From assembly GCA_016196885.1 (NCBI GenBank), contig JACPWU010000053.1, positions 1 through 32,000 of the forward strand: a stretch of DNA of 32,000 nucleotides, read 5' to 3'. A program made the position numbers and the translations under genes. The notes under the pieces were generated by a model. It did not search any database and was not told the DNA's origin. It saw nothing but the letters and a program-made list of their open reading frames with translations. Below, piece after piece: positions 9,524-28,942 of this stretch. Within the stretch, counting starts at the first letter, position 1, and every line of letters begins with the position of its first letter. Origin of the DNA: Chlamydiota bacterium. Its GTDB lineage: Bacteria > Auribacterota > JACPWU01.

Positions 9524-9525
9524 AT

Positions 9526-14523: not shown

Positions 14524-14538
14524 AAAATACCCAATGAA

Positions 14539-14624: not shown

Positions 14625-15394
14625 TTGTTTTTAATGATTTCCACCTTTACCAACGTTGCAGTCACACTTCCAAAAGGGACTTTGGTTTTCACCAAGAGGG
14701 GAAGACGTCTGCGATCGTCCGAAACCCATGCCCAAACGCGGCCTCGCTTCTCAAACATTCCCTTAAATTGAGCCAGAGGTTCCACATAAAAAGCATTAAA
14801 AGTTCCGAGTCTGTGAACTTCCCAATTTTTTCGATAATCCTCTACTTGTACTTCCAACTTCCAATTTTTCTCATCGGCATTCACATCCATAAAACAACTC
14901 TCCCCCACTTTCATGGGGAAGGTTCGAAAAAAATAAATCGCCGAAAGGGTGTCTTGTACTTTGGGAGGGATCTCCATTTCCTTCACAGATCCATTTTTAA
15001 ACGAATGATATCGAGCCGTATGTTTCTCCTGATCGTAAACCATCTCCTCATCCGAGTGGTAACCTCCCTCAGACTGCTTCTTACAAAAACGCCAGGAATA
15101 AAGGCCCTCCACATCAAAGTAGGTCTCTGCATAATCACGAACCTTATAAAAGGTCGAAAGAAACGAATTGGACCCGGCCTCCATCACGATGTGATAGACG
15201 CGATGCCCTTCATATTCTTGAATCCCGTGCACATGAAGCGTGGCCCAACCGACTGGAATCACTCCCCAACGTAAAAGATAAGTCAACTTCTCACCCACCC
15301 TTGGACCGTGGGTCCCTGAAACTTCTTGAGCGTGAAGAGAAAAAGAAAATAAAAAGAAAATAAAAATTTTAGAAATCAGAAATCGAATCTCCAT
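14612..15394 (-). CDS. DUF3108-like secreted protein
   Basis: Signal peptide MEIRFLISKIFIFFLFSFSLHAQ when started at the ATG at 15394 (the track start at 15415 is TTG). GEKLTYLLRWGVIPVGWATLHV resembles the DUF3108 N-terminal signature. Confidence 0.65.
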   Translation of the reverse strand: MEIRFLISKIFIFFLFSFSLHAQEVSGTHGPRVGEKLTYLLRWGVIPVGWATLHVHGIQEYEGHRVYHIVMEAGSNSFLSTFYKVRDYAETYFDVEGLYSWRFCKKQSEGGYHSDEEMVYDQEKHTARYHSFKNGSVKEMEIPPKVQDTLSAIYFFRTFPMKVGESCFMDVNADEKNWKLEVQVEDYRKNWEVHRLGTFNAFYVEPLAQFKGMFEKRGRVWAWVSDDRRRLPLLVKTKVPFGSVTATLVKVEIIKNKGEE

Positions 15395-15460
15395 AGATTT
15401 TTTAATGTATAACAACGTTCATGAAATTATGAAAGAAAAAAAATAGCATGCAATTTTTCT

Positions 15461-15488
15461 TTGAACCCTTAAACCTTTGAACCTTTTT
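15461..15488. repeat. one-armed TTGAACC-type tandem array at the cyclase 3' end
   Basis: TTGAACCC TTAAACC TTTGAACC TTTTT. Its 15-nt core ttaaacctttgaacc recurs as ttaaacccttgaacc at 23774-23788. tttgaacctttgaac occurs at 18838-18852. Confidence 0.7.
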
Positions 15489-17385
15489 TATCGATAACTT
15501 CATACACAGCCACAGACCGCTCCATCCCCTTCACCTTGGTCTCCCCCAAAAATCGGGTCTCCCAATGATTTTCCACCCGTGCGTTCGTGGCCTGACTGAT
15601 GACGATCGGAACATCAAAAGACCTTGTGAGCCCTTCCAGTCGAGCCGCCAAATTTACCTCATCTCCCAAAACTGTATAATTCATGACATGAGAAGAGCCC
15701 ACATTTCCAACCACCATCCAACCCGTGTTGACTCCCACTCCGATAGAAAATGGCTCGTGACCGCGTGCCTTCCAATTTTGCTGAAGCTCCTTTAATTTCT
15801 TTTGCATTTGATAAGCCGCATTGACTGCGCACACCGCATGATTCTGAAACAGGGGAAGGGGCGCCCCAAAAATAGCCATGAGACCATCTCCCAAATACTT
15901 GTCCAAGGTTCCGCCACACTCCAAAATAATCTGGGTCATGGCGTCAAAATATTCGTTCAAAATCGAGATCACCTCTTCTGGCGTTTTTCGTTCACAATAA
16001 GAAGAAAAATTTTGAATGTCCGAAAAAAGAACGGTCAATTCCTCGCGTTTTCCTCCTAACGCCAGCCCTTGAGGATCTTTTAAGACTCTCTCCATCACCG
16101 CCCGTGAAACATAATGCTGAAAAGCTTTTTTAACATATCTTTTTTCTTTCTCTTCCGTCCAAAAACGATGGGTCGTTGAAATGAGATACGATCCCAAAAT
16201 GGCCAATGAAGAAATCACCCATGGCAATTGAACATTCCACCTGCCGAACAACACAAAATCGCTCACCGTAAAAACCATCAGGATCGCCAGAGACCCTAAA
16301 GCAGCCCAAAGAGGTTCAGCCCCACAACTCACAAGACTCGTCACAAGACAAAGGCCAAAGAGCATCAACCCATAAGCCCAAAGCGGAACAATTTTAATAA
16401 AATCCCTTTGCAAAATATTTTGGAGGGCATTGAAATGAACCATCACCAAAGGCGTATTGGGAGAAAGGGGAGTGGGCCCCACATCGGCCACGCCTGTCGC
16501 AGTGAACCCCACGACCACAATAGCATGGGGAAAGACCTTTTTTCTTTTTAAGACCTGATCAAAACGATAAGAGCGAATCTCATCCAAACCCGATCTAAAA
16601 TTTACCAGATAATCCCCTTCGCGATCGATCGGAATGAGAAGCGGGCCCTCTTTCAGCTTTAATTTCAAGAAGGGTCCTGGAAGAAGCTCCACATCCTGCC
16701 CCGAAAGATTGTAATATTGCATGATGAGCTTCAAGGTAAAACTCGGGAGAATCTGATCGCCATATTTGACCAGAAGGGGAATACGTCGAATAGAACCATC
16801 TACATCGCGGGGAACATTGATAAATCCCAAGGCACCATTCTGAGCAAGCTCTGGATATGGCATTTCTAATTCTTGAGCTGCTCGCAAGGAAAGATTTTCA
16901 GATGAAATGCGGGTTAATCCTGAAAGCTCATTTTTCTGGACAATCTTAATTTGCCAATCCTCCAAAGGTTTTCCCCAAGTCTTCTCCATTCTAAAATAAG
17001 ACGCATAGGTCAAGGTATCAAAGAGGCGGCTCATTTGCGCAAAATCATGATCGTCAGAAGGATGAGCCGTATCCGCCCCCTCAAAAAGGATGTCAAAACC
17101 TAAGGCAAGCGGAGGATTTTGAGAAAGGACTTGAAGAAGCGCTGCATGATAAGACCGTGACCAAGGCCACCGGCCCAGAACCTTAATCGCCCCATCATCA
17201 ATCCCCACCAACATGAGTCTTGAATCAGCTCGGTCTAAACCTCGAAAGAAAAATTTGACATCCAGCCCCTTGAGTTCCATCAACCGAATGAAACGGCCTT
17301 GGGAAAGAAAAGAAAAGACGGTGAATGAGAGAACAGCAATCGCAAAACCTCTCTTCATCCACTTCCTTGAAAAAATGTTTGGCAT
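15469..17385 (-). CDS. CHASE2-domain membrane sensor fused to a class III adenylate/guanylate cyclase
   Basis: The order is N-terminal TM, a large extracytoplasmic region, 3-4 TM helices, then the cyclase domain. Cyclase motifs: LTVLFSDIQNFSSY, LDKYLGDGLMAIFGAP, GVNTGWMVVGNVGS, YTVLGDEVNLAARLE. Start taken at ATG 17385; ATG 17358, preceded by AAGGAAG, is an alternative. The track start at 17445 is TTG. Confidence 0.88.
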   Translation of the reverse strand: MPNIFSRKWMKRGFAIAVLSFTVFSFLSQGRFIRLMELKGLDVKFFFRGLDRADSRLMLVGIDDGAIKVLGRWPWSRSYHAALLQVLSQNPPLALGFDILFEGADTAHPSDDHDFAQMSRLFDTLTYASYFRMEKTWGKPLEDWQIKIVQKNELSGLTRISSENLSLRAAQELEMPYPELAQNGALGFINVPRDVDGSIRRIPLLVKYGDQILPSFTLKLIMQYYNLSGQDVELLPGPFLKLKLKEGPLLIPIDREGDYLVNFRSGLDEIRSYRFDQVLKRKKVFPHAIVVVGFTATGVADVGPTPLSPNTPLVMVHFNALQNILQRDFIKIVPLWAYGLMLFGLCLVTSLVSCGAEPLWAALGSLAILMVFTVSDFVLFGRWNVQLPWVISSLAILGSYLISTTHRFWTEEKEKRYVKKAFQHYVSRAVMERVLKDPQGLALGGKREELTVLFSDIQNFSSYCERKTPEEVISILNEYFDAMTQIILECGGTLDKYLGDGLMAIFGAPLPLFQNHAVCAVNAAYQMQKKLKELQQNWKARGHEPFSIGVGVNTGWMVVGNVGSSHVMNYTVLGDEVNLAARLEGLTRSFDVPIVISQATNARVENHWETRFLGETKVKGMERSVAVYEVIDKKGSKV

Positions 17386-17450
17386 TGCCAAAGTGATCTC
17401 CAAATGGTTACAATAGGCGTGTTCGTAAAGTCTGCAATACCCCAAGAAAT

Positions 17451-17527: not shown

Positions 17528-18850
17528 ATGAAAAAAATAATCCTCGCTTCTCTCTTTTTACTCATGGTTCTTTCACTTCTTCAAGCTTCTCCCATCCCCC
17601 AACCCTTGATCCAATCCTTACAAGGAGAAGTCCAAATTCTTAAAACCCAGGGGAGCGAACCGGCCAAAACAGGAATGGCCCTTTCAACATCGGATATTCT
17701 TTCCACGGGACCTCATTCCTTTTGCGTGATCAAAATGGACGAAGAGAATTCCCTTCGTGTGAAGCAAAACTCCAAAATTAAAATCAAAAAAATATGGGAA
17801 GAGGTTCAAAAATCAGACGGCCGTGTGGTTCAGGAATACCGAGTGAATGTGACCCAGGGCGAGCTCACTGCCCAATTAGGAAAACTCCCCAAAGACAGCG
17901 AATTCAAAGTCTCAAGCCCTGTCGCCGTCGCAGGAGCAAAAGGAACGGTTTACACAACAAGAGTAGAAGGAGAAAGCGGGAAGACACGGGTAAGCGTTCT
18001 AGACCATGAAGTCTTAGTCGAAAGTTTGGACAGTCCTAACAAAACAGTCACTGTGCAAAAATTTAGATGGGTGGACACGGCCCCCTGGGACGAAACAACA
18101 CTCAACGCAACAGGACGCGCTCTCCTCTCCGAGGCCATTTTAGGAAAAAATTTTGCGAAACAGGCGGAACAAAATGCACAAATTCAAGCTATCGGAACAG
18201 GCCCTTCCCCAGAGGAAGCCAAATTTAAGGCTACCTACAACCTATCCAGAATCGCCCTTCAACTCCATGTAGAACCAGAAAAAACCGTCGGCGCCTATAT
18301 TTCTCAAAGCACGGAACAAACTCAAAAATTTTATCAGGCGATTGCAAAAGCACAAGTCACCGAGCCCACTCAAAAAGAAGACGGGTCCTTAGAGGCCAAG
18401 GCCCAAATCAATGTTAAAGATTTGGCAGAAGCTTTGAAACATCCCCTTTCAGGGATCACACAAAGCATCATTCCCGTCACCCTTTCCGAATACTCATCAA
18501 AATTTGGAGCGCTGGCCCGCGTGACCACACAGCGAGCGGCCCAAGTAGAAGGATATCGAAACCTCGCCGAAATCATTTATGGCGTTGTGATCGACTCAAA
18601 CACCACCGTGCAAGACTTGGCCGTAAAAAATGACACGGTTCGCACAGTTGTTCAAGGCGTGGTCAAGGGAGCCAAGGTCGTGAACACTCAATACTTCTCT
18701 GACGGCTCCGTCATTGTCTCTCTGGAAATTCAGGGAGGACTCATTCCTCAACAGTTAGGGACAACCACAGGCAATGTATTTGGACAAAATTATCTCTCGA
18801 GTCCCAGAATCGTCCAATACGATGAAATCGTAGATTATTTGAACCTTTGA
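17528..18850 (+). CDS. secreted FecR-domain protein with a C-terminal LPP20-like module
   Basis: Signal peptide MKKIILASLFLLMVLSLLQA. FecR-like segment GEVQILKTQGSEPAKTGMALSTSDILSTGPHSFCVIKMDEENSLRVKQNSKIKI. The C-terminal segment is RAAQVEGYRNLAEIIYGVVIDSNTTVQDLAVKNDTVRTVVQGVVKGAKVVNTQYFSDGSVIVSLEI. It matches the module repeated in 22396-24289. Confidence 0.75.
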   Translation: MKKIILASLFLLMVLSLLQASPIPQPLIQSLQGEVQILKTQGSEPAKTGMALSTSDILSTGPHSFCVIKMDEENSLRVKQNSKIKIKKIWEEVQKSDGRVVQEYRVNVTQGELTAQLGKLPKDSEFKVSSPVAVAGAKGTVYTTRVEGESGKTRVSVLDHEVLVESLDSPNKTVTVQKFRWVDTAPWDETTLNATGRALLSEAILGKNFAKQAEQNAQIQAIGTGPSPEEAKFKATYNLSRIALQLHVEPEKTVGAYISQSTEQTQKFYQAIAKAQVTEPTQKEDGSLEAKAQINVKDLAEALKHPLSGITQSIIPVTLSEYSSKFGALARVTTQRAAQVEGYRNLAEIIYGVVIDSNTTVQDLAVKNDTVRTVVQGVVKGAKVVNTQYFSDGSVIVSLEIQGGLIPQQLGTTTGNVFGQNYLSSPRIVQYDEIVDYLNL

Positions 18851-18863: not shown

Positions 18864-19601
18864 ATGTTCCTTTTTCTTAGACTGCTTCTGGCTCATTTCA
18901 TTGGAGATTTTCCCTTACAAATCGGCGTGGTTTATTCAGCCAAAGTAAAAAGTGTTCAAGGGAAAATACTTCACGCAGGCCTCGTCACCCTTTCCATGAT
19001 TGTCTTTACCTGGCCTTACTGGAAAAATTGGATTTACTGGGGTCTAATCCTTTTCTTAGGAACGCTTCATTTCTTTCAAGACTGGGGGAAACTCGCCATT
19101 GCTCAGAGGATCAAAAATTCTAATAACTTTTTTCTCTACATGGCCGATCAAGTTCTTCATGTGGCCAGTTTCTTCATGATCTGGCTAACGCCCTTACCTC
19201 AAATCCCGATGAGGGCGAGTCATTCTTTTTTCATCTCTGGACTCTACTTCAACGATAAAGTAACGATCTTTCTGATTGCTGTTTTGGCCGTGAGTTTTGC
19301 AGGGACTTTTACCCTGGCCACCTTCAAGGCCACTTTCCTGTCAGAACGGTTCTACACCCCCTATCTCGACCCCCTGGAGAAAAACTATGGAATTTTAGAA
19401 AGAGGCGTCATGCTCGAATTTTTGATTTTATCCCCGAAGCTCATCTGGCTTTTTCCCCTCTTCCTCCTCTCAAAATTCTTCTATGCCAACCACCAGATCA
19501 AAAAAATCGAAGGAAACCCCTTCACACCTTTTCTCTTGGACACCGTTCTGGGAATGATTTTAACGACCCTCATTTACAAAATATACACCCTCTTCTCCTG
19601 A
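18864..19601 (+). CDS. DUF3307-like polytopic membrane protein
   Basis: 245 aa with several TM helices. The N-terminal LLLAHFIGDFPLQ and a later HF.QDW motif fit my recollection of the DUF3307 signature. Confidence 0.6.
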   Translation: MFLFLRLLLAHFIGDFPLQIGVVYSAKVKSVQGKILHAGLVTLSMIVFTWPYWKNWIYWGLILFLGTLHFFQDWGKLAIAQRIKNSNNFFLYMADQVLHVASFFMIWLTPLPQIPMRASHSFFISGLYFNDKVTIFLIAVLAVSFAGTFTLATFKATFLSERFYTPYLDPLEKNYGILERGVMLEFLILSPKLIWLFPLFLLSKFFYANHQIKKIEGNPFTPFLLDTVLGMILTTLIYKIYTLFS

Positions 19602-19610: not shown

Positions 19611-19674
19611 TTGACCAAAATGCACCCAATTGCATTTTGGTCTTGACTAAAATGCAATGGGGTGCATTTTGGTC
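19611..19674. repeat. two tandem 32-nt hairpin units, mutually inverted
   Basis: Unit 1: ttGACCAAAATGCAcccaatTGCATTTTGGTC, a perfect 12-bp stem. Unit 2: ttGACTAAAATGCAatggggTGCATTTTGGTC. The reverse complement of 19611-19642 (unit 1) matches 19645-19676 at all but 3 of 32 positions. Confidence 0.9.
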
Positions 19675-19756
19675 ACTATGGATAGAATCCAAAAAAAGCT
19701 TAAAACACTACATCACTTCGGCTCTGAGTGATCCTCAAAAAGAAAGATCTTTCGTC

Positions 19757-19784
19757 CCCAGCCCTTTGTTAACAAAGGGCTGGG
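19757..19784. terminator. perfect 28-nt palindrome between convergent genes; candidate bidirectional terminator
   Basis: CCCAGCCCTTTG-TTAA-CAAAGGGCTGGG (12-bp GC-rich stem). On the minus strand a TTTCTTTTT run follows about 10 nt downstream. It lies 35 nt after the CsgG-like stop. Confidence 0.55.
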
Positions 19785-19818: not shown

Positions 19819-20769
19819 TCAACCCTCAAACTTCAAAACATCGCCGCGTTGAAAACCACCCCCCCCTACTGTGGTTGCAATTGAAAATTTATCCTGAACT
19901 TGAGAAACTTGAATCAGGCCAATTTTGGTGAGTTCAGAACCCAAATCCATTCCGGTGTCAGGATCCACCAAGGTTTCACCTGGACGATAGACTGTAAGCG
20001 TATCCCCCATCTGAATACCCGCCGAAGCTCCGGCATTGACAAACACTTTACCCTCCGGCTTCACATCCACAATGCGACCCAACCAAGGAACACTTTGCAT
20101 ACGACCCACAATAAAAAAAACAGACTTATCAATCGCCTGCTGACAAGCCTGGCCCAAAGGCGTCTTATCAAAACCCGCTCCACCAAAGGCAAAGTCGCTG
20201 TCCGTGTACGAAAAGGAAAGACCTCCCGCTTCAGCAATTCCTTCACAATGTTGAGAGTCCAAAACCTGACCGGTGGTTGTATCATAGATACGAATATTGA
20301 CACCCACCTTGGCCCGCGATTGATTGGCCCCAATGCGAAAACCATGAACAGCAAATCCACCGCCCTCGCCCCCGCCAGAGGCTTCAAATTCAGTCACAGC
20401 GCCACTGATCATGATTTGACTCTTAAGAATTTTTCCAATCTTGGCCGCCTCTCCACCCGCCGTGCGACCACTGACTCCAAAATCTTGTTCAGCAATCACC
20501 TTTTCAATTTCGGGACGCTCCACCACAATAAAACGCCCGCTTCGAATGAGTGCAGTGGTCAACATCTCGGCCATGCCATTGCCCAAATCCCATTTGGCCC
20601 ACTGACCTGCCTTATTTTCAAAAGTCCCGACCGCAATGGTTTTCTTAGGGCCACTGGGAGCCGGCAAGGCCGCCACAGGAGCCGCCTTCACGGGATACGC
20701 AAAGGCCCCGCCCACTGAACACAAAAGTGAAGCAATCGCTAAAACACTCAAAACCTTCATCTTTTTCAT
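19819..20769 (-). CDS. CsgG-family outer-membrane lipoprotein with an extra C-terminal beta-rich domain
   Basis: IAVGTFENKAGQWAKWDLGNGMAEMLTTALIRSGRFIVVERPEIEKVIAEQDF is the CsgG-family core. Start taken at the ATG at 20769 (MKKMKVLSVLAIASLLCS, AGGAG upstream). The track extension to 20874 runs through the REP-like repeat. The C-terminal ~90 aa (GRIVDVKPEGKVFVNAGASAGIQMGDTLTVYRPG...GDVLKFEG) resemble FlgT_C/LpoB-type beta domains. Confidence 0.8.
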   Translation of the reverse strand: MKKMKVLSVLAIASLLCSVGGAFAYPVKAAPVAALPAPSGPKKTIAVGTFENKAGQWAKWDLGNGMAEMLTTALIRSGRFIVVERPEIEKVIAEQDFGVSGRTAGGEAAKIGKILKSQIMISGAVTEFEASGGGEGGGFAVHGFRIGANQSRAKVGVNIRIYDTTTGQVLDSQHCEGIAEAGGLSFSYTDSDFAFGGAGFDKTPLGQACQQAIDKSVFFIVGRMQSVPWLGRIVDVKPEGKVFVNAGASAGIQMGDTLTVYRPGETLVDPDTGMDLGSELTKIGLIQVSQVQDKFSIATTVGGGGFQRGDVLKFEG

Positions 20770-20804
20770 GACCTTTAGATTTCTCCTTTCACAAATTAAT
20801 TTCG

Positions 20805-20906
20805 ATGATCTTTCGAGATCATCGTATGCAATGAAAGTTCTCCCCATCATGTTTTTTGTAGTCGCCCGATTCATCGGGCAGCCCCATAAATGGGGCGACT
20901 ACAAAA
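20805..20906 (+). repeat. dispersed ~100-bp repeat, copy B (REP-like GTAG...CTAC palindrome)
   Basis: See copy A at 9302-9405. Same orientation. Lies in the spacer between the FlgT-like and CsgG-like genes. Confidence 0.9.
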
Positions 20907-20920
20907 AGAACCTATTCTGG

Positions 20921-22063
20921 CTAAAGAGGTGCTTGTCTTTCCCCAACCCACTTCACATCAATACGGTTTTGAGATTTTGCCGTGACCGCCAAGGCAATGC
21001 CGGGAAGATTCTCTAAGTGAACATCAAAATCTTTCCAGATCGCCCCATCCACAGTCAAATCTAAAATCAAAATATTATTCACAAAACTTCTTTCATTCAC
21101 ACTCTGAATTCCTCGAATTTCTTCCAAGGTCTTGACAAGCATTTGCTTCGCAGTCGCATTCACACCACTGGCTACCACTTGAATGTTCACCACGTTATAG
21201 GCCTCGCTACGCATTTTCTCAACCATTTCACTCATCAATTTATCTGCCAATTGCCCAGCCCCGAACCGAAGGGCATCCTTAGCAGTTGGAATGCGACCGC
21301 CGCCCCTGGCTTCTCCTTCAACATCATCAGACACCATCACTTCAGCTGTATCTGTTTTAATCACCCGAGCTGAAATCTGGGAGCGGTAAGCAAAAACAGA
21401 AACGCCGTAGGGTCTAGAATGATCAATCAAATCTGCCGTGGCCTGCCCCACCACCACCATCTCTGCTCCAGATTGACGTCCCAGGGCAGCTGCTTTTTGA
21501 GGGTCGGCATAACTCAAGGCCGCATCTCTTTCCTTAATCATCTGTATCTGATTTTTGTCCACCAGAGGAAAATCCTTGGCAAGAAAAGCCCTCTCCATTT
21601 CAGTTTGAGTCACGGCACCTGCCTGCTCCAATCCATCAATCAATTCAGCAAAAATGAACATCACCCTTGGATTTTCCCGACGCTTCATCGTAATCTTAAG
21701 CGCCTTCAAATTCTTTTCCAAAAGGCCCAAGGCAACCACCGCCCGAACACGAATCACATAAAGCCCATCTTGACCTTGATTATCATTAATCACTTCATAG
21801 CTTGTGACATAACCCTTCACCTGAGAATAGACTTGATCGTCCAAAAGCTGAAAATTGCTGACCATGGTTTCAGAATCAATAATCGAACCCACGCCCTGCT
21901 CAATGGCATTCCTGAGCGCCCGATTCAAAGCCTCATCATGGGCCTGCAAACTATTTCCTACAGATTTCCCCTCAGCTTCAATCGCTGTCTCAGCAACTTG
22001 AGCAGAAAGTTGAAAACCTGAAAGCATCCCTAATAATGTAAAAAACATGATCCATCTTTTCAT
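20921..22063 (-). CDS. periplasmic FlgT_N/LPP20-like domain protein (380 aa)
   Basis: Signal peptide MKRWIMFFTLLGMLSGFQLSA. The N-terminal module is AHDEALNRALRNAIEQGVGSIIDSETMVSNFQLLDDQVYSQVKGYVTSYEVINDNQGQDGLYVIRVRAVV. It resembles the FlgT N-terminal domain. The remainder is alpha/beta with no motif I can name. Confidence 0.6.
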   Translation of the reverse strand: MKRWIMFFTLLGMLSGFQLSAQVAETAIEAEGKSVGNSLQAHDEALNRALRNAIEQGVGSIIDSETMVSNFQLLDDQVYSQVKGYVTSYEVINDNQGQDGLYVIRVRAVVALGLLEKNLKALKITMKRRENPRVMFIFAELIDGLEQAGAVTQTEMERAFLAKDFPLVDKNQIQMIKERDAALSYADPQKAAALGRQSGAEMVVVGQATADLIDHSRPYGVSVFAYRSQISARVIKTDTAEVMVSDDVEGEARGGGRIPTAKDALRFGAGQLADKLMSEMVEKMRSEAYNVVNIQVVASGVNATAKQMLVKTLEEIRGIQSVNERSFVNNILILDLTVDGAIWKDFDVHLENLPGIALAVTAKSQNRIDVKWVGERQAPL

Positions 22064-22086
22064 CTAAGTTTTTCCTTTCTTAACCT

Positions 22087-22165
22087 GTCGTGAGTCGTCG
22101 GTCGTGAGTCGTGAGTAAAAACAAATACTTTTTAAACTCACGACTCACCCCTCACGACTCAAGAC
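22087..22165. repeat. unit-periodic intergenic hairpin HPH10 (7-nt units GTCGTGA), paralogue of HPH3
   Basis: Left: GTCGTGA GTCGTCG GTCGTGA GTCGTGA GT. Reverse complement of right: GTCTTGA GTCGTGA GGGGTGA GTCGTGA GT. Loop: aaaaacaaatactttttaa. Confidence 0.9.
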
Positions 22166-22302
22166 TACTCGACCACTTCCGTCTGTTCTACCACCGTTTC
22201 ATTCATAACATCTGTATGATGCTCATGAGGTGCTTCACAACCCCAAAGATTCGTAAGAATGACAGCCACATAAGCAACACCCATCCATTTGAAAAGCTTC
22301 AT
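22165..22302 (-). CDS. 45-aa putative lipoprotein with a His cluster
   Basis: Not in the ORF track (too short). ATG 22302-22300 preceded by AAGGAGAAGAGACC; TAG 22167-22165. Sequence: MKLFKWMGVAYVAVILTNLWGCEAPHEHHTDVMNETVVEQTEVVE. It has a signal peptide plus a lipobox-like LWGC. HPH10 and HPH11 flank it. Confidence 0.45.
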   Translation of the reverse strand: MKLFKWMGVAYVAVILTNLWGCEAPHEHHTDVMNETVVEQTEVVE

Positions 22303-22323
22303 GGTCTCTTCTCCTTGTTTTAA

Positions 22324-22387
22324 CAGTCGTCAGTCGTGAATGTTAAAGGTATTGTTTATTTTTTTACTCATCCTCACCCCTCACCAC
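22324..22387. repeat. degenerate unit-periodic element HPH11 with inverted loop
   Basis: Left: cagtcgtcagtcgtgaatg. Right: actcatcctcacccctcaccac. The arms are no longer complementary. The reverse complement of the central segment is aaaaaaataaacaatacctttaa, which closely matches the HPH3 loop. Confidence 0.65.
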
Positions 22388-22395
22388 AGCTTTTA

Positions 22396-23724
22396 TTACA
22401 TTCTATACTTCCTCAACTTCTCCCACAAGCCCGCCAAAGACAACTGTACATCCACTTGAGCACTTCCATCTTCCAAATAACGAGGCTCACTCACTTGAGC
22501 CCCCGCCAAAAAAGTTTGAACCTGGGCATGGATGTCGTCATTCTGAACGGTAAAGTCCTTCACCGTGGTTTGAGAATCAATCCTAACCCCATAAACCATT
22601 TCAGCTAAATTCCGCTTGGCGTCCATTTCAGCAGCCCTGGCAGCCGCTAGTTTGGCTTCCATTCCCGTTTGCCCTTCAGGTGGGATACCCGTCCCTGTCG
22701 CACTCACCACTTGGAGAGCCCACTCAGGGGTCGTGGGTTGGACCATGGCCACAGGTCCCTGCGCTTCTTGAGGAGCTGTCATGTATTTCTCAGGAGGAAC
22801 TCCTTCTCCCGTGACACGGATGACTTTCTTAGGATAAAAATCCAGAACCTCCTCAAACTTGGTGGTTCTCAAATGCTCATGAGCCCAATGATGATAAGGA
22901 TCGTAGTGAATGTACCAATCGCGAATGGTGGTCAACTCCTTCACCACCGTTTGAATCGCCACTTCCACATCCACTTGGCAAGTCCCATCGGGAAGATAAC
23001 GATAAGGTCCTGCAGTTCTCATCCCCTTGATAAAAGTATCTACCTTGGTTGTGACCTGATCGGACTCCGCCACAAAATCACGAACGTACGTATCAGCCGT
23101 GATCTGAAGTCCCTTGATTCGCTCCGCCATGTTGCGATAGGCATCTACCTTTGCTGCCCGTTCAGCCATCATACGGCCCTGAGCCGTCACACTCTCCCAA
23201 CCAGGAACTCCTGTACTGGGCACTGCGGAAACACTTTCACCCATGGGAGGAAGAGGAGCCTCACCTGGATTCAAACGAGGGGCCCCATGGCCGGTCTCAC
23301 GAATGACTTTTTGACGATTGACGGTGACCATTTGGTCGAATGAATACACGTGATCGTGGCACAAATGATGATACACGGTGTAAACCCTTTGCAACTGCTG
23401 CACCACTTCTTCCAAGGTTACCTCCACACTCACCTCAGCCGAGCCATCTTCAAAATAACGGGGAGGACCCACGCGAACACCCTTGATAAAAGTGTCCAGC
23501 TCTGTATTGATTTCATCGGCCTCGGCCACAAAATCACGAACATACGTGGTCGCATTGATCTGTAAACCTTTGATTCTTTCAGCCAAATTACGATAGGCAT
23601 CCGCTACGGCAGCCCGCTTCGCCAAAAGCTTTTCTTGCGCTGGTTGCAAGGCCCACGACGGACTGGCCATTACCCACGCAAAAGCAAACAACGTTAAAAC
23701 ACTCGCTAACTTTTTCATATACAC
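22396..23724 (-). CDS. secreted protein with three LPP20-like modules and two His clusters
   Basis: Signal peptide MYMKKLASVLTLFAFAWVMASPSWA. Three modules are present. Module 1: RAAVADAYRNLAERIKGLQINATTYVRDFVAEADEINTELDTFIKGVRV...YFEDGSAEVSVEV. Module 2: RAAKVDAYRNMAERIKGLQITADTYVRDFVAESDQVTTKVDTFIKGMRT...YLPDGTCQVDVEV. Module 3: RAAEMDAKRNLAEMVYGVRIDSQTTVKDFTVQNDDIHAQVQTFLAGAQV...YLEDGSAQVDVQL. Confidence 0.78.
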   Translation of the reverse strand: MYMKKLASVLTLFAFAWVMASPSWALQPAQEKLLAKRAAVADAYRNLAERIKGLQINATTYVRDFVAEADEINTELDTFIKGVRVGPPRYFEDGSAEVSVEVTLEEVVQQLQRVYTVYHHLCHDHVYSFDQMVTVNRQKVIRETGHGAPRLNPGEAPLPPMGESVSAVPSTGVPGWESVTAQGRMMAERAAKVDAYRNMAERIKGLQITADTYVRDFVAESDQVTTKVDTFIKGMRTAGPYRYLPDGTCQVDVEVAIQTVVKELTTIRDWYIHYDPYHHWAHEHLRTTKFEEVLDFYPKKVIRVTGEGVPPEKYMTAPQEAQGPVAMVQPTTPEWALQVVSATGTGIPPEGQTGMEAKLAAARAAEMDAKRNLAEMVYGVRIDSQTTVKDFTVQNDDIHAQVQTFLAGAQVSEPRYLEDGSAQVDVQLSLAGLWEKLRKYRM

Positions 23725-23773
23725 TCCCTCCTCTTTCGCTTTTGAACTTCAGATTTTATAGTCCCTGTAGGGA

Positions 23774-24289
23774 TTAAACCCTTGAACCTTCTATTTCCTC
23801 CCATTCCCCCTGAGAAATTTCTTCCGTTTTGTCATCCACCACATAAACTGGAACACCATAAACTCTCATACGCCGAGAAAAGCAAGCCTCATCATCACAC
23901 GGATGAACCAAGCTGACATCCAAAACCATCTTCACTTGAACCCCGCCATCTGGTAAATAAACTTTCTCGATCACCTTAGCACCGCGAATAAATCCTGTCT
24001 CAGAAATAATAGAAGAGCCATCTCTTAACTCTAGACTCATTCGAGAAAGGGTGCGGGCGAGATTGTAATAAGCCTTCACTTTTGCGGCTCGCTCAGCCAA
24101 GAGTCTGGCCTGGGCGAGAGAACGACCTTGAGGAGCTTCACCTCTTCCAAGCGCTTCAAGACTCATGCTTGAAGGACTTTGTTGAACGGTTTCGCGATTC
24201 ACAGTCACGATGACATCTTCCCCCTGTGCAAAACCGAATACTCCTTGTAAGAAGAAAAGTGTTGTTATTATAGAGCGAGCTTTTGTCAT
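23774..24289 (-). CDS. secreted protein with one LPP20-like module
   Basis: Signal peptide MTKARSIITTLFFLQGVFGFAQG. Module: ERAAKVKAYYNLARTLSRMSLELRDGSSIISETGFIRGAKVIEKVYLPDGGVQVKMVLDV. Confidence 0.7.
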   Translation of the reverse strand: MTKARSIITTLFFLQGVFGFAQGEDVIVTVNRETVQQSPSSMSLEALGRGEAPQGRSLAQARLLAERAAKVKAYYNLARTLSRMSLELRDGSSIISETGFIRGAKVIEKVYLPDGGVQVKMVLDVSLVHPCDDEACFSRRMRVYGVPVYVVDDKTEEISQGEWEEIEGSRV

Positions 24290-24338
24290 AAATCAATGCC
24301 TTTGTTGTCTTGGCCCTGTCCAATATACCGCAACTTTC

Positions 24339-24641
24339 TTAATAATAACACTCCTCATAATACACCGGACGATGATAATAAGAATAAGCAGGATACCGAT
24401 GCCAGCAATTGTGATAAGGATAGGGATATGCATCATAAACAGGCTGAGCAGGATAGCAAGGCTGTGCATAATAATAATCGCCATGAGAATGATAAGCAGA
24501 ATCCGCAATGATGGCACCTGTCACCAAACCCACGGCCGCTCCTGCTGCCGCCCAACCCCAATCATCTGAATGAGCATGAGAAGGAACTGCATTCATTAAA
24601 AAAAGACTGACAAGCGCTAAAACCAATATTGTTTTTTTCAT
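24339..24641 (-). CDS. small secreted Gly-zipper protein with a Tyr/Pro/His-rich tail
   Basis: I start it at the ATG at 24641, with GGAGG 8 nt upstream. Signal peptide MKKTILVLALVSLFLMNAVPSHA. Gly-zipper GWAAAGAAVGLVTGAIIA. Tail YHSHGDYYYAQPCYPAQPVYDAYPYPYHNCWHRYPAYSYYHRPVYYEECYY. First gene behind the sigma-54 promoter. Confidence 0.65.
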   Translation of the reverse strand: MKKTILVLALVSLFLMNAVPSHAHSDDWGWAAAGAAVGLVTGAIIADSAYHSHGDYYYAQPCYPAQPVYDAYPYPYHNCWHRYPAYSYYHRPVYYEECYY

Positions 24642-24672
24642 TTGACGAACCTCCATTTCTAAGTGTCAGAAA

Positions 24673-24688
24673 AGCAAAAAAGATGCCA
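24673..24688 (-). promoter_or_regulatory. sigma-54 (-24/-12) promoter
   Basis: The minus strand reads TGGCAT-CTTTT-TTGCT (consensus TGGCAC-N5-TTGCW). GG at 24687-24686 and GC at 24675-24674, exactly 10 nt between them. It lies about 20 nt upstream of the GGAGG of the first operon gene. Confidence 0.7.
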
Positions 24689-24805
24689 AACATAAAATAT
24701 TTCTATAACTCATTCTTGTGAAATGTGTTATATCTTTTCTTGCTTCAACCCGCAAAAAACGAATGTTTTAAAATGGAGCAAAATGTGGTAATAAACAAGT
24801 GTCTG

Positions 24806-24830: not shown

Positions 24831-26363
24831 ATGCAAATCAACCAAATCATCAACGAATTAGGAAAAGAAAGCCTTGGAGAATTGATTAAGGTCAGTACCC
24901 TTATCAATTCTTCCCTAGACCTTTCTGAAATTCTGACCCATGTCATGGAGCTTACCAATAGATTGTTAAATTGCGAGGCAAGCTCTCTTCTTTTACTGAA
25001 TGAAAAAACCAATGAGCTCTCTTTTAAAACAGCCACAGGCGAAAAAGCTCAAGACATGAAGGCCTTCAATCTCAAAATGGGTCAAGGGATTGCGGGCTGG
25101 GTCGCTCAGAAGGAAAAGGCGGTGATTATTCCAGATGTTGAAAAAGATCCCCGCCATTTCAGCCAAGCCGATTCCAAAACCGGATTCAAAACCAAATCCA
25201 TTCTTTGCGTCCCCATGAAAGCCAAAGGTCAATTGATTGGTGTTTTGGAAGGGATTAACAAAAAAGAAAATTTAGTTTTTGATGAAGCGGATCTTTCCTT
25301 GGCTTCCATTCTTGCGGATCAAGCTGCGACGGCCATTCAAAATGCCAGGGTTTATGAAGAACTCCAGCAAGACCATGAAAATCTAAAAAAAGAAGTACGG
25401 CCCAAGCAAACATTGGTCGGAAAATCTAAAATTATTCAAGATATTTTAAAAATGGCAGGCCGAGCAGCTCAAGGAGATTCTACCCTCTTGATTCGCGGGA
25501 AAAGCGGCACGGGAAAAGAAATGCTTGCCCGCGCCATCCACCAATTGAGCCCACGATCCAACAAGCCTTTTGTTTGTGTCACGTGCTCTATTCTGACCCA
25601 GACACTCTTGGAGAGTGAACTTTTTGGCCACGAGAAGGGGGCCTTTACGGGAGCCGATTCCAGAAAAATCGGCCGATTTGAAATGGCTGATGGCGGGACG
25701 CTCTTCTTAGACGAAATCGGAACCCTGGCCCCAGAAACACAACTTCGACTCTTGAGAGTTCTTCAGGACAAGGAATTTGAACGCGTGGGTGGACGAGAAA
25801 CCATCAAGGTCAATGTACGCATCATCGCTGCCACCAATGAAGATTTGGAGAAAGGGATTCAGGAAAATAAATTTCGTGAGGACCTTTATTATCGCTTGAA
25901 GGTGATTGAGATTTTCATGCCTGAGCTGAAAGATCGATCTGAAGATATTCCGATTCTTGCCCAGCATTTTTTAGAAATTTACTCTCGTGAAATGGCCCGT
26001 CCTGTCAAAGGAATTTCTAAAGAAGCGATTGAAATTTTAAGAAATTATCACTGGCCAGGAAATGTTCGGGAACTGAAAAACACCATCGAGCGATCGGTCG
26101 TTTTAGGGTCCAGTGAATACATTGTCTCCGAGGACTTGACTACAGAAATTCGTCATCCCCGTGAGGGAGCTACATCGCTTCCTTCAAGAGAGGGTCCATC
26201 GCAACTTCCTTCCGGAAACACCCTTGAAGAAGCAGAAATTCGCCATATTCAGGAGATACTCGTCAAAACCAACGGCAATAAAAGCAAAGCCGCCGAACTC
26301 CTCGGCATTTCCAGAAATCGCCTCGACCGAAAATTGGCAGGGATTAAACCGGCCGCGAAATGA
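24831..26363 (+). CDS. sigma-54-dependent transcriptional activator (GAF - AAA+ - Fis-type HTH)
   Basis: N-terminal GAF-like domain. Walker A GKSGTGKE. The sigma-54 contact loop ESELFGHEKGAFTGA (GAFTGA). GGTLFLDEIG and RVIAATN. C-terminal HTH NKSKAAELLGISRNRLDRKL. Confidence 0.95.
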   Translation: MQINQIINELGKESLGELIKVSTLINSSLDLSEILTHVMELTNRLLNCEASSLLLLNEKTNELSFKTATGEKAQDMKAFNLKMGQGIAGWVAQKEKAVIIPDVEKDPRHFSQADSKTGFKTKSILCVPMKAKGQLIGVLEGINKKENLVFDEADLSLASILADQAATAIQNARVYEELQQDHENLKKEVRPKQTLVGKSKIIQDILKMAGRAAQGDSTLLIRGKSGTGKEMLARAIHQLSPRSNKPFVCVTCSILTQTLLESELFGHEKGAFTGADSRKIGRFEMADGGTLFLDEIGTLAPETQLRLLRVLQDKEFERVGGRETIKVNVRIIAATNEDLEKGIQENKFREDLYYRLKVIEIFMPELKDRSEDIPILAQHFLEIYSREMARPVKGISKEAIEILRNYHWPGNVRELKNTIERSVVLGSSEYIVSEDLTTEIRHPREGATSLPSREGPSQLPSGNTLEEAEIRHIQEILVKTNGNKSKAAELLGISRNRLDRKLAGIKPAAK

Positions 26364-26505: not shown

Positions 26506-27663
26506 ATGTTAAACAGATACGTTGAACTCCCTCTGAAACAATCCTTTTTTCTCTTTGGATCCCGCCAAACAGGGAAGAGCACGCTCATTCAAACGCACAC
26601 CCCTGAAAAGACTTGGAAGATAGACCTTCTTTCATCTGACCTTTTTTTTAAATACTCCAGAGACCCTTCTTTATTCCGTCAAGAGGCAGAGGAAAAGATT
26701 AAAAACGAAAAAATACATACTATTTTTGTAGATGAGATTCAGAGAGTCCCCATTCTGTTAAATGAAATTCAGTCATTGATGGGCCTATGGAATGGGCAAT
26801 TCATTCTGACAGGGTCTAGCGCAAGAAAACTTAAGAAAGGAGGCGCTAATTTATTGGCCGGAAGAGCCGTTGTCAAATATCTATTCCCCCTCATCTATGA
26901 AGAACTGAAAGATGGATTTAAGTTAGAAGAGGTTCTTCTCTTTGGAACCCTGCCTGCCATTTTGGGTAAAACAAAAGAGGAAAAAATTCAGATTCTCTCC
27001 ACCTATGCAAACACTTACCTAAGGGAAGAAATTCAGAGCGAAGGAATTGTCAGAAATCTAGGAGGATTTTCACGGTTTCTAGATTTGTCTGCAAGTCAGT
27101 CTGGAGAACTGGTCAGTTTCTCAGCCATTGGACGAGAATGCCATTTACCTACACGAACGGTTCAATCTTACTACGAAGTTTTAGAAGACACCCTAATCGG
27201 CTTTAGACTTGAGGCCTGGGAAAAATCAATCAGAAAACGTTTAGTCAGTCATCCTAAGTTCTATTTTTTTGATCTGGGCGTAACAAATGCGATCAACCGG
27301 TGTCTGAAAGGGGGATTGCCCTCGCCTCTCAAGGGACGGCTTTTTGAACAATTTGTTATTCTAGAAACCTATCGCCTACTCCATTATCATGAAAGTGAAG
27401 CGAGGCTTTTTTTCTGGAGAACCAATCATGGAGCTGAAGTTGATTTACTTATTGAAAAACATGGAGAAATGATCGGTGCCTTTGAAATCAAATCCTCTTC
27501 AAATATTGCAAAGGCGGATTTATCCGGTCTAAAATCCTTTCAAGAGGATTTTCCAAAAACACCTTGCGCCCTTGTCTCGACGGCAATCCATGCTTACCAA
27601 ATCGATTCGATCAAAATCTTGCCCTGGCAGGTTTATTTAGAGAAGATATCTTCCCTTCTATAA
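26506..27663 (+). CDS. AAA+ ATPase of the AAA_14/DUF4143 type
   Basis: 385 aa. Walker A FGSRQTGKSTLI and Walker B IFVDEIQ. The C-terminal region is typical of DUF4143-containing ATPases (FFWRTNHGAEVDLLIE). Confidence 0.8.
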   Translation: MLNRYVELPLKQSFFLFGSRQTGKSTLIQTHTPEKTWKIDLLSSDLFFKYSRDPSLFRQEAEEKIKNEKIHTIFVDEIQRVPILLNEIQSLMGLWNGQFILTGSSARKLKKGGANLLAGRAVVKYLFPLIYEELKDGFKLEEVLLFGTLPAILGKTKEEKIQILSTYANTYLREEIQSEGIVRNLGGFSRFLDLSASQSGELVSFSAIGRECHLPTRTVQSYYEVLEDTLIGFRLEAWEKSIRKRLVSHPKFYFFDLGVTNAINRCLKGGLPSPLKGRLFEQFVILETYRLLHYHESEARLFFWRTNHGAEVDLLIEKHGEMIGAFEIKSSSNIAKADLSGLKSFQEDFPKTPCALVSTAIHAYQIDSIKILPWQVYLEKISSLL

Positions 27664-28275: not shown

Positions 28276-28581
28276 TTACGCTGCTTGACCCAGCTTATAA
28301 ATGTGAACCTCTCGTTCAAGACGTTTGCCTAAATGGTCTTTTCCAATTTCTATATCGTACCTGACTTGCAGATTCATCCAAAAGCGTTCTGAGGTTCCGA
28401 AATAGCGTGAGAGTCTGAGGGCTGTATCTGTACTAATGCTACGGTCTCCATGCACAATTTCATTGATGCGGCGGGCAGGAACAGAAATATCCTTTGCAAG
28501 TCGGTATTGACTGATTCCCATCGGTCTTAAAAACTCTAACAACAATATTTCTCCTGGATGAACCGGGCTCATTTTTTTCAT
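28276..28581 (-). CDS. higA: HigA-family antitoxin (XRE-type HTH)
   Basis: PVHPGEILLLEFLRPMGISQYRLAKDISVPARRINEIVHGDRSISTDTALRLSRYFGTSERFWMNLQVRYD is the canonical HigA pattern. Confidence 0.9.
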   Translation of the reverse strand: MKKMSPVHPGEILLLEFLRPMGISQYRLAKDISVPARRINEIVHGDRSISTDTALRLSRYFGTSERFWMNLQVRYDIEIGKDHLGKRLEREVHIYKLGQAA

Positions 28582-28606
28582 TTTAATTGACTCCCTTTCC
28601 TAGGGT

Positions 28607-28888
28607 TTAATGATAATCAACCATCTCAACTCGATAGGCACGGCCATTCGCCCATTCAAAACAAATACGCCATTGTTTGTTAACCCGAATGCTATATTGA
28701 TCTCTTCTTTTACCAAGCAACTTTTCAAGATGATTAGAGGGTGGTATTCTTAGATCTTCCAAAACTTCGGCCGCATCCAGCAACATCAACTTCCTAAGCG
28801 CCGCAGCTTGAATATCCTGAGGTAATTTCCGAGAACCCTCTCGGCAAAATATTCGCTCAGTTTCTTTACATCTAAAATTTTCAATCAC
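28607..28888 (-). CDS. higB: HigB-family toxin (plasmid maintenance system killer type)
   Basis: (V)IENFRCKETERIF...LRKLMLLDAAEVLEDLRIPPSNHLEKLLGKRRDQYSIRVNKQWRICFEW..GRAYRVEMVDYH. I prefer the GTG at 28888 by analogy with MIKSF-type N-termini. The track start at 28942 is also a GTG. Confidence 0.8.
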   Translation of the reverse strand: MIENFRCKETERIFCREGSRKLPQDIQAAALRKLMLLDAAEVLEDLRIPPSNHLEKLLGKRRDQYSIRVNKQWRICFEWANGRAYRVEMVDYH

Positions 28889-28894
28889 AGGAGA

Positions 28895-28923
28895 ATAATA
28901 ACATGAGGCGTTAATAACGTCAA
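28895..28923 (-). promoter_or_regulatory. sigma-70-type promoter of higBA
   Basis: Minus strand: TTGACG (28923-18), a 17-nt spacer, TATTAT (28900-28895), then 6 nt to the GTG at 28888. Confidence 0.45.
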
Positions 28924-28942
28924 AAGGTATTCTTAAAAACAC

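Follow-up and report, generated by a model that had tools for sequence, protein, structure and literature searches.

A conserved cluster of FlgT-, FlgP- and CsgG-related genes in Auribacterota and its possible role in a non-flagellar envelope ring

Introduction

To our knowledge, FlgT, FlgP and FlgO have been described only as accessories of high-torque flagellar motors, and most of what is known about CsgG concerns the curli channel. Here we describe a conserved, uncharacterised gene cluster that is built from these ring and channel families, found in a 32,000-nucleotide stretch of bacterial DNA (GenBank assembly GCA_016196885.1, contig JACPWU010000053.1, positions 1 to 32,000; hereafter the window). 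Its six minus-strand genes, g1 to g6, lie behind a sigma54-type promoter and include relatives of FlgT, of FlgP (the LPP20 family) and of CsgG. Our best reading, which we hold with about even confidence and which draws on analogy with known ring systems, is that the six genes form a sigma54-dependent operon for an undescribed non-flagellar ring assembly, which would sit on the periplasmic side of the outer membrane around a CsgG-like oligomer.

An earlier note on this DNA, made from the letters alone, had proposed an undescribed, periplasm-spanning ring or channel assembly. The undescribed ring assembly remains the best reading in view of the protein families, the sigma54 control, the absence of curli and flagellar genes, the co-conservation of the genes and the lack of a match in the literature. 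For the periplasm-spanning part there is no evidence, the only candidate inner-membrane structural partner identified being a DUF3307 protein encoded next to the cluster.

Operon layout and protein families

All six same-strand open reading frames (ORFs) listed in the earlier note are present at 19819-24656, separated by gaps of 49-151 nt, and every product has a signal-peptide-like N-terminus (Table 1). For g1 the likely start is an MKK codon at 24641 with GGAGG 7 nt upstream, and NCBI likewise calls a protein of 100 aa; read from its likely start at 20769, g6 has 316 aa, which is also the length called by NCBI. The arrangement is that of an operon, and co-transcription is predicted from this layout.

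The CsgG assignment of g6 is given by a Pfam match (1.7e-34; 119.4 bits against a cut-off of 20.8) that covers model positions 8-207 of 210, and its C-terminal part matches FlgT_C (5e-8; 33.7 against a cut-off of 27). A profile of the g6 family retrieves E. coli CsgG from the PDB (2.7e-15), and the C-terminal domain retrieves TsaP (8e-9), in agreement with the earlier description of a CsgG-family protein with an added beta-rich C-terminal domain. The AlphaFold2 model of g6 (mean predicted local distance difference test score, pLDDT, 79.6) is confident in the core and in the C-terminal beta domain, and the Gly-rich loops equivalent to the transmembrane segments TM1 and TM2 of CsgG score below 50. 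In Foldseek searches with this model, Vibrio FlgT comes first (1.3e-16, about 300 columns) and CsgG follows at 2e-10; FlgT outranks CsgG because its middle and C-terminal domains both align. The Foldseek lists of g6 and g5 both have FlgT at the top, then CsgG, PelC and GNA1162. As the fold of g6 resembles the middle and C-terminal domains of FlgT at least as well as CsgG, the term 'channel' used in the earlier note is unproven.

The description of g6 as a lipoprotein has to be withdrawn. Its N-terminus, MKKMKVLSVLAIASLLCSVGGAFA/YP (...SLLC-SVGGAFA/YP), holds no [LVI][ASTVI][GAS]C lipobox, and most of 43 aligned homologues have no N-terminal Cys, an ...AGC being found only in the homologues P0109 and P0114 (related proteins and loci are cited by our own P and L numbers). 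The TM1-equivalent segment is as long as that of E. coli CsgG and the TM2 equivalent about 5 residues shorter, and both are conserved in length within the family. At the constriction loop, g6 has a Trp opposite Y51 and an Asn opposite N55 of E. coli CsgG; directly after these it is missing 7 residues, among them the counterpart of F56. It may be that g6 forms an outer-membrane pore through the two Gly-rich hairpins. The pore is favoured by the CsgG-like, conserved length of the hairpin segments and by their being shorter in the paralogue g5, where a weak alignment (hhalign probability 14%) leaves the middle domain about 10 residues short at TM1 and about 13 at TM2; it is disfavoured by the missing lipid anchor, the more polar loops and the shorter constriction loop.

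The similarity of g5 to FlgT, suggested earlier from its N-terminal domain, is clearest at the level of structure. In Pfam, g5 itself stays below the cut-offs of FlgT_N (0.011; 16.7 against 28.8) and CsgG (0.013), but its homologue in L064 clears the FlgT_N cut-off (43.4), as do more distant homologues; there is also a weak NCBIfam match to Leptospira LipL46. The AlphaFold2 model (pLDDT 77.8) consists of an SHS2-like N-domain, an alpha/beta middle domain, a long helix and an alpha/beta C-terminal domain, and its best Foldseek matches are Vibrio FlgT structures (8z5n_0, 1.4e-11; 3w1e, 1.9e-9) over about 390 alignment columns, at low TM-scores of 0.23-0.31, followed by CsgG, GNA1162, PelC and LptE-like lipoprotein folds. 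A search of the PDB with the single g5 sequence gave no match, and the family profile matched only through its FlgP-like N-domain, which aligns without gaps to Campylobacter jejuni FlgP (0.003). Residues 60-82 form an insert at the position of the ring-forming hairpin of FlgP; the insert fits an oligomer interface, because it is nearly invariant across the family yet poorly modelled in the monomer (pLDDT below 50). Matches to LpoB, which could have indicated an activator of peptidoglycan synthases, were weak and below cut-off and are read as a shared fold only. Among long g5-family proteins no g5-g6 fusion was found. Four metagenomic g5 relatives (P0309, P0322, P0343 and P0344) are fused to transglutaminase-like plus TPR, caspase (Peptidase_C14) or SH3_3 domains.

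The FlgP-like proteins agree with the earlier count of one LPP20-like module in g2 and three in g3. The match of g3 to Pfam LPP20 is 3e-15 (56.8 bits against a cut-off of 25.9), its three modules were recognised by pairwise matches and alignment, and module 3 matches FlgP of C. jejuni (PDB 9hmf_C, 6.7e-9) and of Vibrio (8z5n, 2.6e-6). No Pfam family matches g2, which is related to the LPP20 modules of the g3 orthologue in L001 (6e-7) and to the g2 orthologue there (3e-13). The beta-hairpin insert of FlgP is the ring-forming element (PMC12222027); modules 1-3 of g3, the C-terminal module of a neighbouring FecR-LPP20 protein and the N-domain of g5 align to C. jejuni and Vibrio FlgP across this insert without gaps, and the alignment of g2 shows a 9-residue deletion within it. 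FlgP and FlgO of Vibrio are lipidated (PMC13521929), whereas g2 and g3 carry signal peptides of the signal peptidase I type and no lipobox, and g3, with 442 aa and three modules, is not a small single-domain lipoprotein of the FlgP kind.

A lipobox is found in g4, which the earlier note had called a lipoprotein: this mini-lipoprotein has a mature part of about 23 residues behind its LWGC motif. In about 20 loci drawn from several phyla, lipoproteins of 41-72 aa are encoded immediately upstream of the g5 orthologue, the copy closest to g5 having the C-terminus [E/Y]VV[E/R/K/Q]. In L004 the gene of the mini-lipoprotein overlaps the g5 start by 14 nt, and Auribacterota loci of the L004/L005 type have no activator and no g1 and carry the mini-lipoprotein in triplicate.

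The first gene, g1, stands apart. Tyr makes up 22% of its mature part and Pro 9%, the 53-residue tail contains 17 Tyr and 7 Pro, and its Gly/Ala-rich hydrophobic stretch has a Kyte-Doolittle mean of 1.56; no Gly-zipper Pfam family matches it, so that the 'Gly-zipper' of the earlier note is a description only. A word-based database search returned g1 alone. Positional analogues of the same layout are found in L001, L008, L009, L014, L015, L016 and L035, and a Tyr-rich first gene opens every inspected activator-bearing locus except L026; the tails of these homologues are strongly basic, with a net charge of up to +9. The gene is restricted to the subset of loci that have the activator, and the g5-g6 core is widely present without it. 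The Pro-rich tail, which shows no repeats of the CsgA type, makes an amyloid unlikely in our view. The earlier proposal of a fibre or amyloid cargo is weakened by these observations and by the lack of a detectable wider family, and g1 is better seen as a fast-evolving, lineage-specific accessory or client.

Histidine-rich stretches are seen in this lineage only, in the g3 linkers (HHLCHDH and HYDPYHHWAHEH), in g4 (HEHH) and in g1 (YHSHGD), and the mini-lipoproteins of Auribacterota start with C-TYHEHYY. These stretches may bind metal.

Control region and ends of the operon

The promoter element in front of g1 has one mismatch to TGGCAC-N5-TTGC. Counted over the whole window, the -24/-12 pattern shows no excess over chance (21 matches against 24 expected), and the sigma54 assignment is made on position and cross-locus conservation instead: in 8 of 9 orthologous activator-bearing loci, the first-gene start is preceded at a distance of 43-58 nt by a GGCAT-N5/6-TTGC element. 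With the divergent gene for a sigma54 activator alongside, the earlier call of sigma54 control is supported. About 80-125 nt upstream of the -24 element, a TGCTC[CT]A-N4-(G)CAAC-like motif, read by eye and without statistics, recurs in the window, L008, L001, L014, L015, L016 and L035 and is inverted in L009; a search for an inverted repeat as upstream activator site found nothing convincing.

At the other end, the 28-nt palindrome that was said to terminate the cluster is present and folds strongly (-29.6 kcal/mol, z = -4.5), with a small hairpin and UUUUU after it. It was missed by a simple terminator scan, since the stem is not directly followed by a T-run. Terminator-like matches were not above expectation (8, against 4.8 +/- 2.3 in shuffles), and none fell inside an intergenic gap.

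Between the DUF3307 stop codon and this terminator lies a second structure, a nested, near-perfect hairpin of about 65 nt at 19613-19680. It is built from four alternating copies of GACCAAAATGCA, a 12-mer enriched relative to shuffles, and its two strands fold at -44 and -49 kcal/mol (z = -7.3 and -8.5). It might terminate transcription in both directions or be a small repeat element.

Absence of curli and flagellar genes

ORFs of at least 100 aa were scanned with Pfam, those left unscanned being antisense to or overlapping called genes. No curli family (CsgA/B/E/F), no HfaA/D and no flagellar family matched among the scanned ORFs of the window, as the earlier note had stated for the curli and flagellar genes of the cluster, and none of six Pfam-annotated related loci has a flagellar, curli or HfaA/D gene within about 9 kb on either side. 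A curli system was rejected for g6, which has no lipobox and no csgA/B/E/F genes around it. In the literature searched, no characterised system matches the cluster; only flagellar-motor papers and work on Acinetobacter baumannii and Neisseria came up, in keeping with the earlier view that it is undescribed.

Of the named carriers, Candidatus Theseobacter exili (L009) has the full cluster and Candidatus Tritonobacter lacicola (L018) a full or near-full one; both are Auribacterota metagenome-assembled genomes (MAGs) from Ace Lake that are reported to encode no flagella (PMC9324843). The cluster is also found in Candidatus Auribacter fodinae (L023), which encodes flagella (PMC9324843). The genome paper of the cultured relative Methylacidiphilum infernorum V4 reports no chemotaxis genes and is silent on flagella, and was not used as evidence.

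Distribution and synteny

The closest relatives of the window are Auribacterota MAGs, with 75% amino-acid identity in g5. The NCBI label of the source MAG, 'Chlamydiae bacterium', is probably wrong, because the nearest species-level relatives of its g5 belong to these MAGs. On a contig of 1.99 Mb, L001 has the same order of 9-10 genes at about 50% amino-acid identity: the divergent activator with GAF and sigma54-interaction domains, a Tyr-rich small protein, a g2-like protein, a three-module LPP20 protein, a lipoprotein of 41 aa, a g5-like and two CsgG-like proteins, then convergent DUF3307 and FecR-LPP20 genes and a divergent CHASE2 cyclase.

When one genome per GTDB species was scanned, g5 relatives turned up in 68 species, from Auribacterota, Omnitrophota, Verrucomicrobiota (including a Methylacidiphilum MAG) and Planctomycetia and, at greater distance, Desulfobacterota, Nitrospirota and Fuchsiella. 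Auribacterota and related uncultured MAGs share the gene order; the g5-g6 core extends to Omnitrophota and Verrucomicrobiota and, more distantly, to Desulfobacterota. Counted on one genome per GTDB species, for close relatives with enough flanking sequence, a g6-like gene directly follows g5 in 22 of 30 loci, and nearby genes include a g3-like gene (17/28), FecR (12/27), DUF3307 (7/27) and the activator (6/23). Three minimal loci (L006, L025 and L029) keep g5, g6 and a FecR gene and have no cyclase nearby. The neighbourhood check proposed with the earlier note thus finds the genes co-conserved across phyla. In an exhaustive profile search the g5 family amounted to about 830 clusters (50% identity) with E <= 1e-30 and to 4212 with E <= 1e-10.

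A g6-like gene alone does not imply the cluster, since the g6 homologue of L003 (Nitrospirota) is solitary. In L050, a distant deltaproteobacterial variant, a TPR/SLH protein and a GNA1162-like lipoprotein are inserted, the latter between g5 and g6, and by its gene content this variant connects the cluster to the widespread CsgG-plus-lipoprotein clusters. Among cultured organisms, the diderm Firmicute Fuchsiella alkaliacetigena Z-7100 carries a distant version (L057, 87-6196) with a CsgG/LpoB-like protein, two FlgT_N-containing g5-like proteins, a CsgG/FlgT_M-like protein and a small outer-membrane beta-barrel, and may serve as an experimental entry point.

Neighbouring genes and a possible control circuit

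The earlier note's module of six genes holds for the six genes themselves; the unit is larger, as the activator and the FecR-LPP20, DUF3307 and CHASE2 cyclase genes are syntenic with them. The activator gene is syntenic in L001, L008, L009, L014, L015, L016, L026 and L035. The FecR-LPP20 protein has a syntenic counterpart in L001 (34% identity), and FecR-domain genes occur near g5 in 9 of 16 mid-distance loci besides the close loci counted above. DUF3307 holds the same position in L001, L007, L008, L009, L011, L012, L018 and L035, and the CHASE2 cyclase in L001, L007, L008, L009, L012, L018 and L035.

Domains of the GAF type bind many ligands. In the activator, this domain is 46% identical (1e-46) to that of a SpoIIE phosphatase which in L001 is encoded directly after the CHASE2 cyclase, in the same operon. 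From this likeness and from the known pairing of FecR and CHASE2 in the BiofilmReg operon of Burkholderia (PMC5192318), we infer a chain of control in which the periplasmic FecR-LPP20 protein would sense the state of the assembly or envelope and signal to the CHASE2 cyclase, whose cyclic nucleotide would bind the GAF domain of the divergent activator; with nucleotide bound, the activator would fire the -24/-12 promoter.

The GAF-SpoIIE gene follows the CHASE2 cyclase gene directly in L001 (15109-17245), L012 and L035. In L001 it is followed by genes for a HATPase_c_2 anti-sigma kinase and a STAS protein, which together apparently form a partner-switching module driven by the same cyclase.

The remainder of the window

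Elsewhere the window carries lipopolysaccharide/3-deoxy-D-manno-octulosonate (Kdo) and Lpt genes, hpf, hprK, HPr, ptsI, a HigBA pair and a few unknowns. A long minus-strand block at 1916-15415 contains ptsI, HPr, hprK, hpf, lptB, lptA, lptC, a kdsC-like gene, kdsD, kdsA, pyrG, kdsB and genes for HAD, PfkB kinase and DUF3108 proteins. Many proteobacteria have rpoN between lptB and hpf, where this block has none. A second one-mismatch -24/-12 match lies at 7987-8001 (minus strand), within the kdsC-like ORF and close to lptC on its upstream side. The AAA_14/DUF4143 ATPase gene that closely follows the activator gene (26506-27663, plus strand) is not syntenic in related loci. Further along the minus strand follow a HigB-like toxin gene and an HTH_3 antitoxin gene, a type II toxin-antitoxin pair (28276-28942), and a 1014-aa ORF (28943-31987) with no Pfam match at E <= 0.001.

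Table 1. Features of the cluster and its surroundings, in window coordinates
Feature	Coordinates	Strand	Description
g1	24339..24641 (ORF 24339-24656, likely start 24641)	-	100-aa small exported protein; signal peptide, Gly/Ala-rich hydrophobic segment, Tyr/Pro-rich tail; called from ORF and Shine-Dalgarno sequence
g2	23774..24289	-	171 aa, exported; one LPP20/FlgP-like module, hairpin 9 residues shorter
g3	22396..23724	-	442 aa, exported; three tandem FlgP/LPP20 modules
g4	22165..22302	-	45-aa mini-lipoprotein; lipobox LWGC, C-terminus EVVE
g5	20921..22063	-	380 aa, FlgT-like three-domain periplasmic protein (predicted); FlgP-like N-domain with conserved hairpin insert, CsgG/LpoB-like middle domain without long hairpins, alpha/beta C-domain
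g6	19819..20769 (ORF 19819-20874, likely start 20769)	-	CsgG domain and FlgT_C/TsaP-like C-terminal beta domain; signal peptide, no lipobox
sigma54-type -24/-12 promoter element	24674..24688	-	TGGCATcttttTTGCt, TGGCAT-N5-TTGCT; 33 nt upstream of g1 start, adjoins divergent sigma54 activator gene
Candidate upstream activator site	24765..24780	-	TGCTCCATTTTAAAAC; motif read by eye across loci
Terminator hairpin	19757..19784	.	28-nt palindrome between convergent g6 and DUF3307 genes; 12-bp G+C-rich stem
GAF - sigma54 AAA+ - HTH_8 enhancer-binding protein	24831..26363	+	Divergent; Pfam Sigma54_activat 1.7e-69, GAF 1e-20, HTH_8 4e-11
FecR-LPP20 protein	17528..18850	+	Exported; FecR domain and one or two C-terminal LPP20/FlgP-like modules; Pfam FecR 4e-10, LPP20 4e-7 (30.7 bits)
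DUF3307 integral membrane protein	18864..19601	+	Associated part; Pfam DUF3307 9e-14
CHASE2 - adenylate/guanylate cyclase	15469..17445	-	Divergent from FecR-LPP20 gene; Pfam CHASE2 9e-48, Guanylate_cyc 1e-24; putative regulatory input

Discussion

How the products might fit together can be sketched from their relatives. The g6 protein would oligomerise into a CsgG-type ring, its C-terminal domains making a second ring below, and g5 would add a FlgT-like ring beside or around it. The FlgP-type hairpins of the g5 N-domain, g3 and the FecR-LPP20 protein could zip into concentric beta-sheet rings. As g5 and g6 are not lipidated, g4 might supply a lipid anchor in trans, its C-terminal VVE strand docking onto g5; g6 might in addition insert its two Gly-rich hairpins as an outer-membrane pore, and g1 would be the lineage-specific accessory or client. 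By analogy with other CsgG/HfaB-family clusters, the assembly is likely an envelope platform for surface-matrix or adhesin assembly, or a support of the outer membrane.

Several points weigh against a non-flagellar ring around a CsgG-like oligomer. Neither g6 nor most of its relatives have the lipid anchor that CsgG needs for membrane insertion (PMC13397529), its TM1- and TM2-equivalent loops are Gly-rich, more polar than those of E. coli CsgG and modelled at pLDDT below 50, and its constriction loop is 7 residues shorter. For the formation of rings, their stoichiometry and their location, the argument is by analogy only. The statements that carriers have no flagella come from MAGs of 88-95% completeness (88-92% for L009 and L018). 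The full arrangement is limited to a subclade, with the activator near g5 in just 6 of 23 close loci, and some Verrucomicrobiota carry g5 without g6.

A type VIII-like secretion system, with g6 as a CsgG-type pore, g1 as secreted fibre or amyloid cargo or as a plug, and the FlgP- and FlgT-like proteins as periplasmic accessories, is in our judgement unlikely. The CsgG match of g6 does include the hairpin regions, the TM1 equivalent has the E. coli length, the hairpin segments are of fixed length across the family, and the aromatic residue and Asn of the constriction loop are kept; the loop itself, however, is shortened with loss of the F56 equivalent, the lipobox is missing, and no CsgE/F/A/B-like gene is present among the scanned ORFs. 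The position of g1 as first gene of the operon, its signal peptide and the Tyr-rich g1-like proteins that hold this place in seven other loci would suit a cargo, but g1 is confined to the activator-carrying subclade when the g5-g6 core is far wider, it is Pro-rich with neither curlin-like repeats nor a detected homologous family, and the tail, which is strongly basic in homologues (up to +9), would be cytoplasmic by the positive-inside rule if the hydrophobic segment is a stop-transfer anchor.

Quite unlikely, too, is an envelope-sensing device, in which the rings would be a periplasmic sensor or scaffold for the FecR-CHASE2 cyclase pair and would report the status of the outer membrane or peptidoglycan rather than transport or anchor anything. 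Sensing pairs of FecR and CHASE2 are known (PMC5192318), no gene stays with g5-g6 more persistently than that for a FecR-domain protein, down to minimal loci of three genes, the FlgP-like modules of the FecR protein could co-assemble with g3 and g5, and envelope regulators use the LpoB/TolB-N-like fold that is also seen in the middle domains of g5 and g6. Those same minimal loci, however, have the FecR gene and no cyclase nearby, many loci have no regulator at all, and six structural genes, with multi-module ring formers among them, would be a high price for a sensor.

Flagellar hierarchies are typically under sigma54 control. An accessory of the flagellar motor, equivalent to the H-ring or basal disk and expressed by sigma54 as in Vibrio and Campylobacter, would fit this control, the best structural matches (FlgT for g5 and g6, FlgP for g3) and the flagella encoded by one carrier, Ca. 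Auribacter fodinae (L023; PMC9324843), but we rejected it as very improbable, since L009 and L018 carry the cluster full or near-full in MAGs (88-92% complete) reported without flagella, no flagellar Pfam family lies within about 9 kb on either side in six loci or in the 32-kb window, the activator is of the GAF type and not FleQ/FlrA, and the neighbours are cyclase and FecR genes.

The ring assembly at the outer membrane that we favour has several implications. Relatives of FlgT, FlgP and CsgG combined in bacteria reported without flagella, and with no curli genes, point to an unstudied outer-membrane-associated ring structure, and make the cluster a concrete candidate for the origin of flagellar disk proteins. 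It also gives context to a large family of 'hypothetical' proteins, the g5 relatives with their ~830 clusters at E <= 1e-30, and raises the ideas of trans lipid anchoring by a 23-residue lipopeptide, of a CsgG-like protein without its own anchor, and of a circuit running from FecR and CHASE2 through a cyclic nucleotide to GAF and sigma54. Non-lipidated CsgG-like pores with an extra ring domain could interest nanopore engineering. A bolder version, which we regard as doubtful, is a free-standing outer-membrane nanomachine with concentric FlgP/FlgT-type rings round a CsgG-type pore, a mini-lipoprotein anchor in trans and feedback through cyclic nucleotide and sigma54; it would be the source from which flagellar FlgT, FlgP and FlgO were recruited, and a second, curli-independent use of the CsgG channel that exports or anchors Tyr-rich peptides.

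Comparison with known systems

A close parallel is the Vibrio flagellar H-ring (FlgT, FlgP and FlgO; PDB 3W1E, 8Z5N, 9YDS), in which 26 FlgT and 58 FlgP/FlgO subunits are anchored by lipidation (PMC13521929). As a motor component, FlgT binds the LP-rings and acts as a scaffold for MotX/MotY. With its FlgP-like N-domain, CsgG/TolB-N-like middle domain and third domain, g5 resembles FlgT in architecture, g6 is like the FlgT middle and C-terminal domains, and g3 and g2 belong to the FlgP family; non-lipidated and lipidated subunits are combined under the outer membrane in the H-ring, as they would be in the assembly proposed here. Unlike the H-ring, the cluster has no flagellar context and occurs in MAGs reported without flagella, its FlgP-like units are not lipoproteins and are fused in threes, and the lipid is carried by a peptide of its own, 23 residues long. 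In sequence, g6 falls into the CsgG family and has hairpin segments, which sets it apart from FlgT, and the C-domain of g5 is alpha/beta, the only match to the FlgT_C model being the beta-stranded C-domain of g6.

In the basal disk of C. jejuni (FlgP/FlgQ; PDB 9HMF), FlgP has the SHS2 fold and ring-forming hairpin insert that are kept in modules 1-3 of g3 and in the g5 N-domain, and FlgQ resembles a repeat of two FlgP units, comparable to the three modules of g3. The cluster differs from the disk in its lack of a link to a motor, its CsgG-like and FecR partners and its non-lipidated proteins.

With E. coli CsgG (PDB 4UV3), a nonamer whose 36-strand barrel is made of two transmembrane beta-hairpins (TM1 and TM2) from each protomer, g6 shares the Pfam domain, the core fold, the length of the TM1 equivalent and the aromatic residue and Asn at Y51/N55; it differs in the missing lipobox, the 7-residue deletion in the constriction loop, a TM2 equivalent about 5 residues shorter, the extra FlgT_C/TsaP-like domain and the absence of CsgA/B/E/F genes. 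Other clusters likewise place a CsgG-family gene in a small envelope operon without curli, among them the three-gene csgG cluster of A. baumannii, GNA1162 of Neisseria meningitidis and HfaABD of Caulobacter. Such CsgG-plus-lipoprotein clusters are widespread and of unknown function, and disruption in A. baumannii leads to loss of the poly-N-acetylglucosamine matrix, pili and biofilm (10.1101/2021.05.19.444899). In contrast to them, the window has no GNA1162/DUF799 or DUF4810 gene by Pfam, the partners are FlgT-like and FlgP-like, and the CsgG-like protein is non-lipidated.

The regulatory neighbours recall the FecR/CHASE2 pair of Burkholderia BiofilmReg, where, as in the window, an exported FecR-domain protein is encoded beside a CHASE2 transmembrane sensor; there the output is a histidine kinase and the FecR protein carries LysM, and here the output is a nucleotide cyclase and the FecR protein carries FlgP-like modules. 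Finally, g6 has a likeness to TsaP, the secretin-associated ring protein of type IV pili (PDB 3JC8, 6VE2). Although g6 has no LysM domain and no pil genes lie nearby, its C-terminal beta domain matches (8e-9) the C-terminal domains of TsaP, which form a periplasmic ring around an outer-membrane channel.

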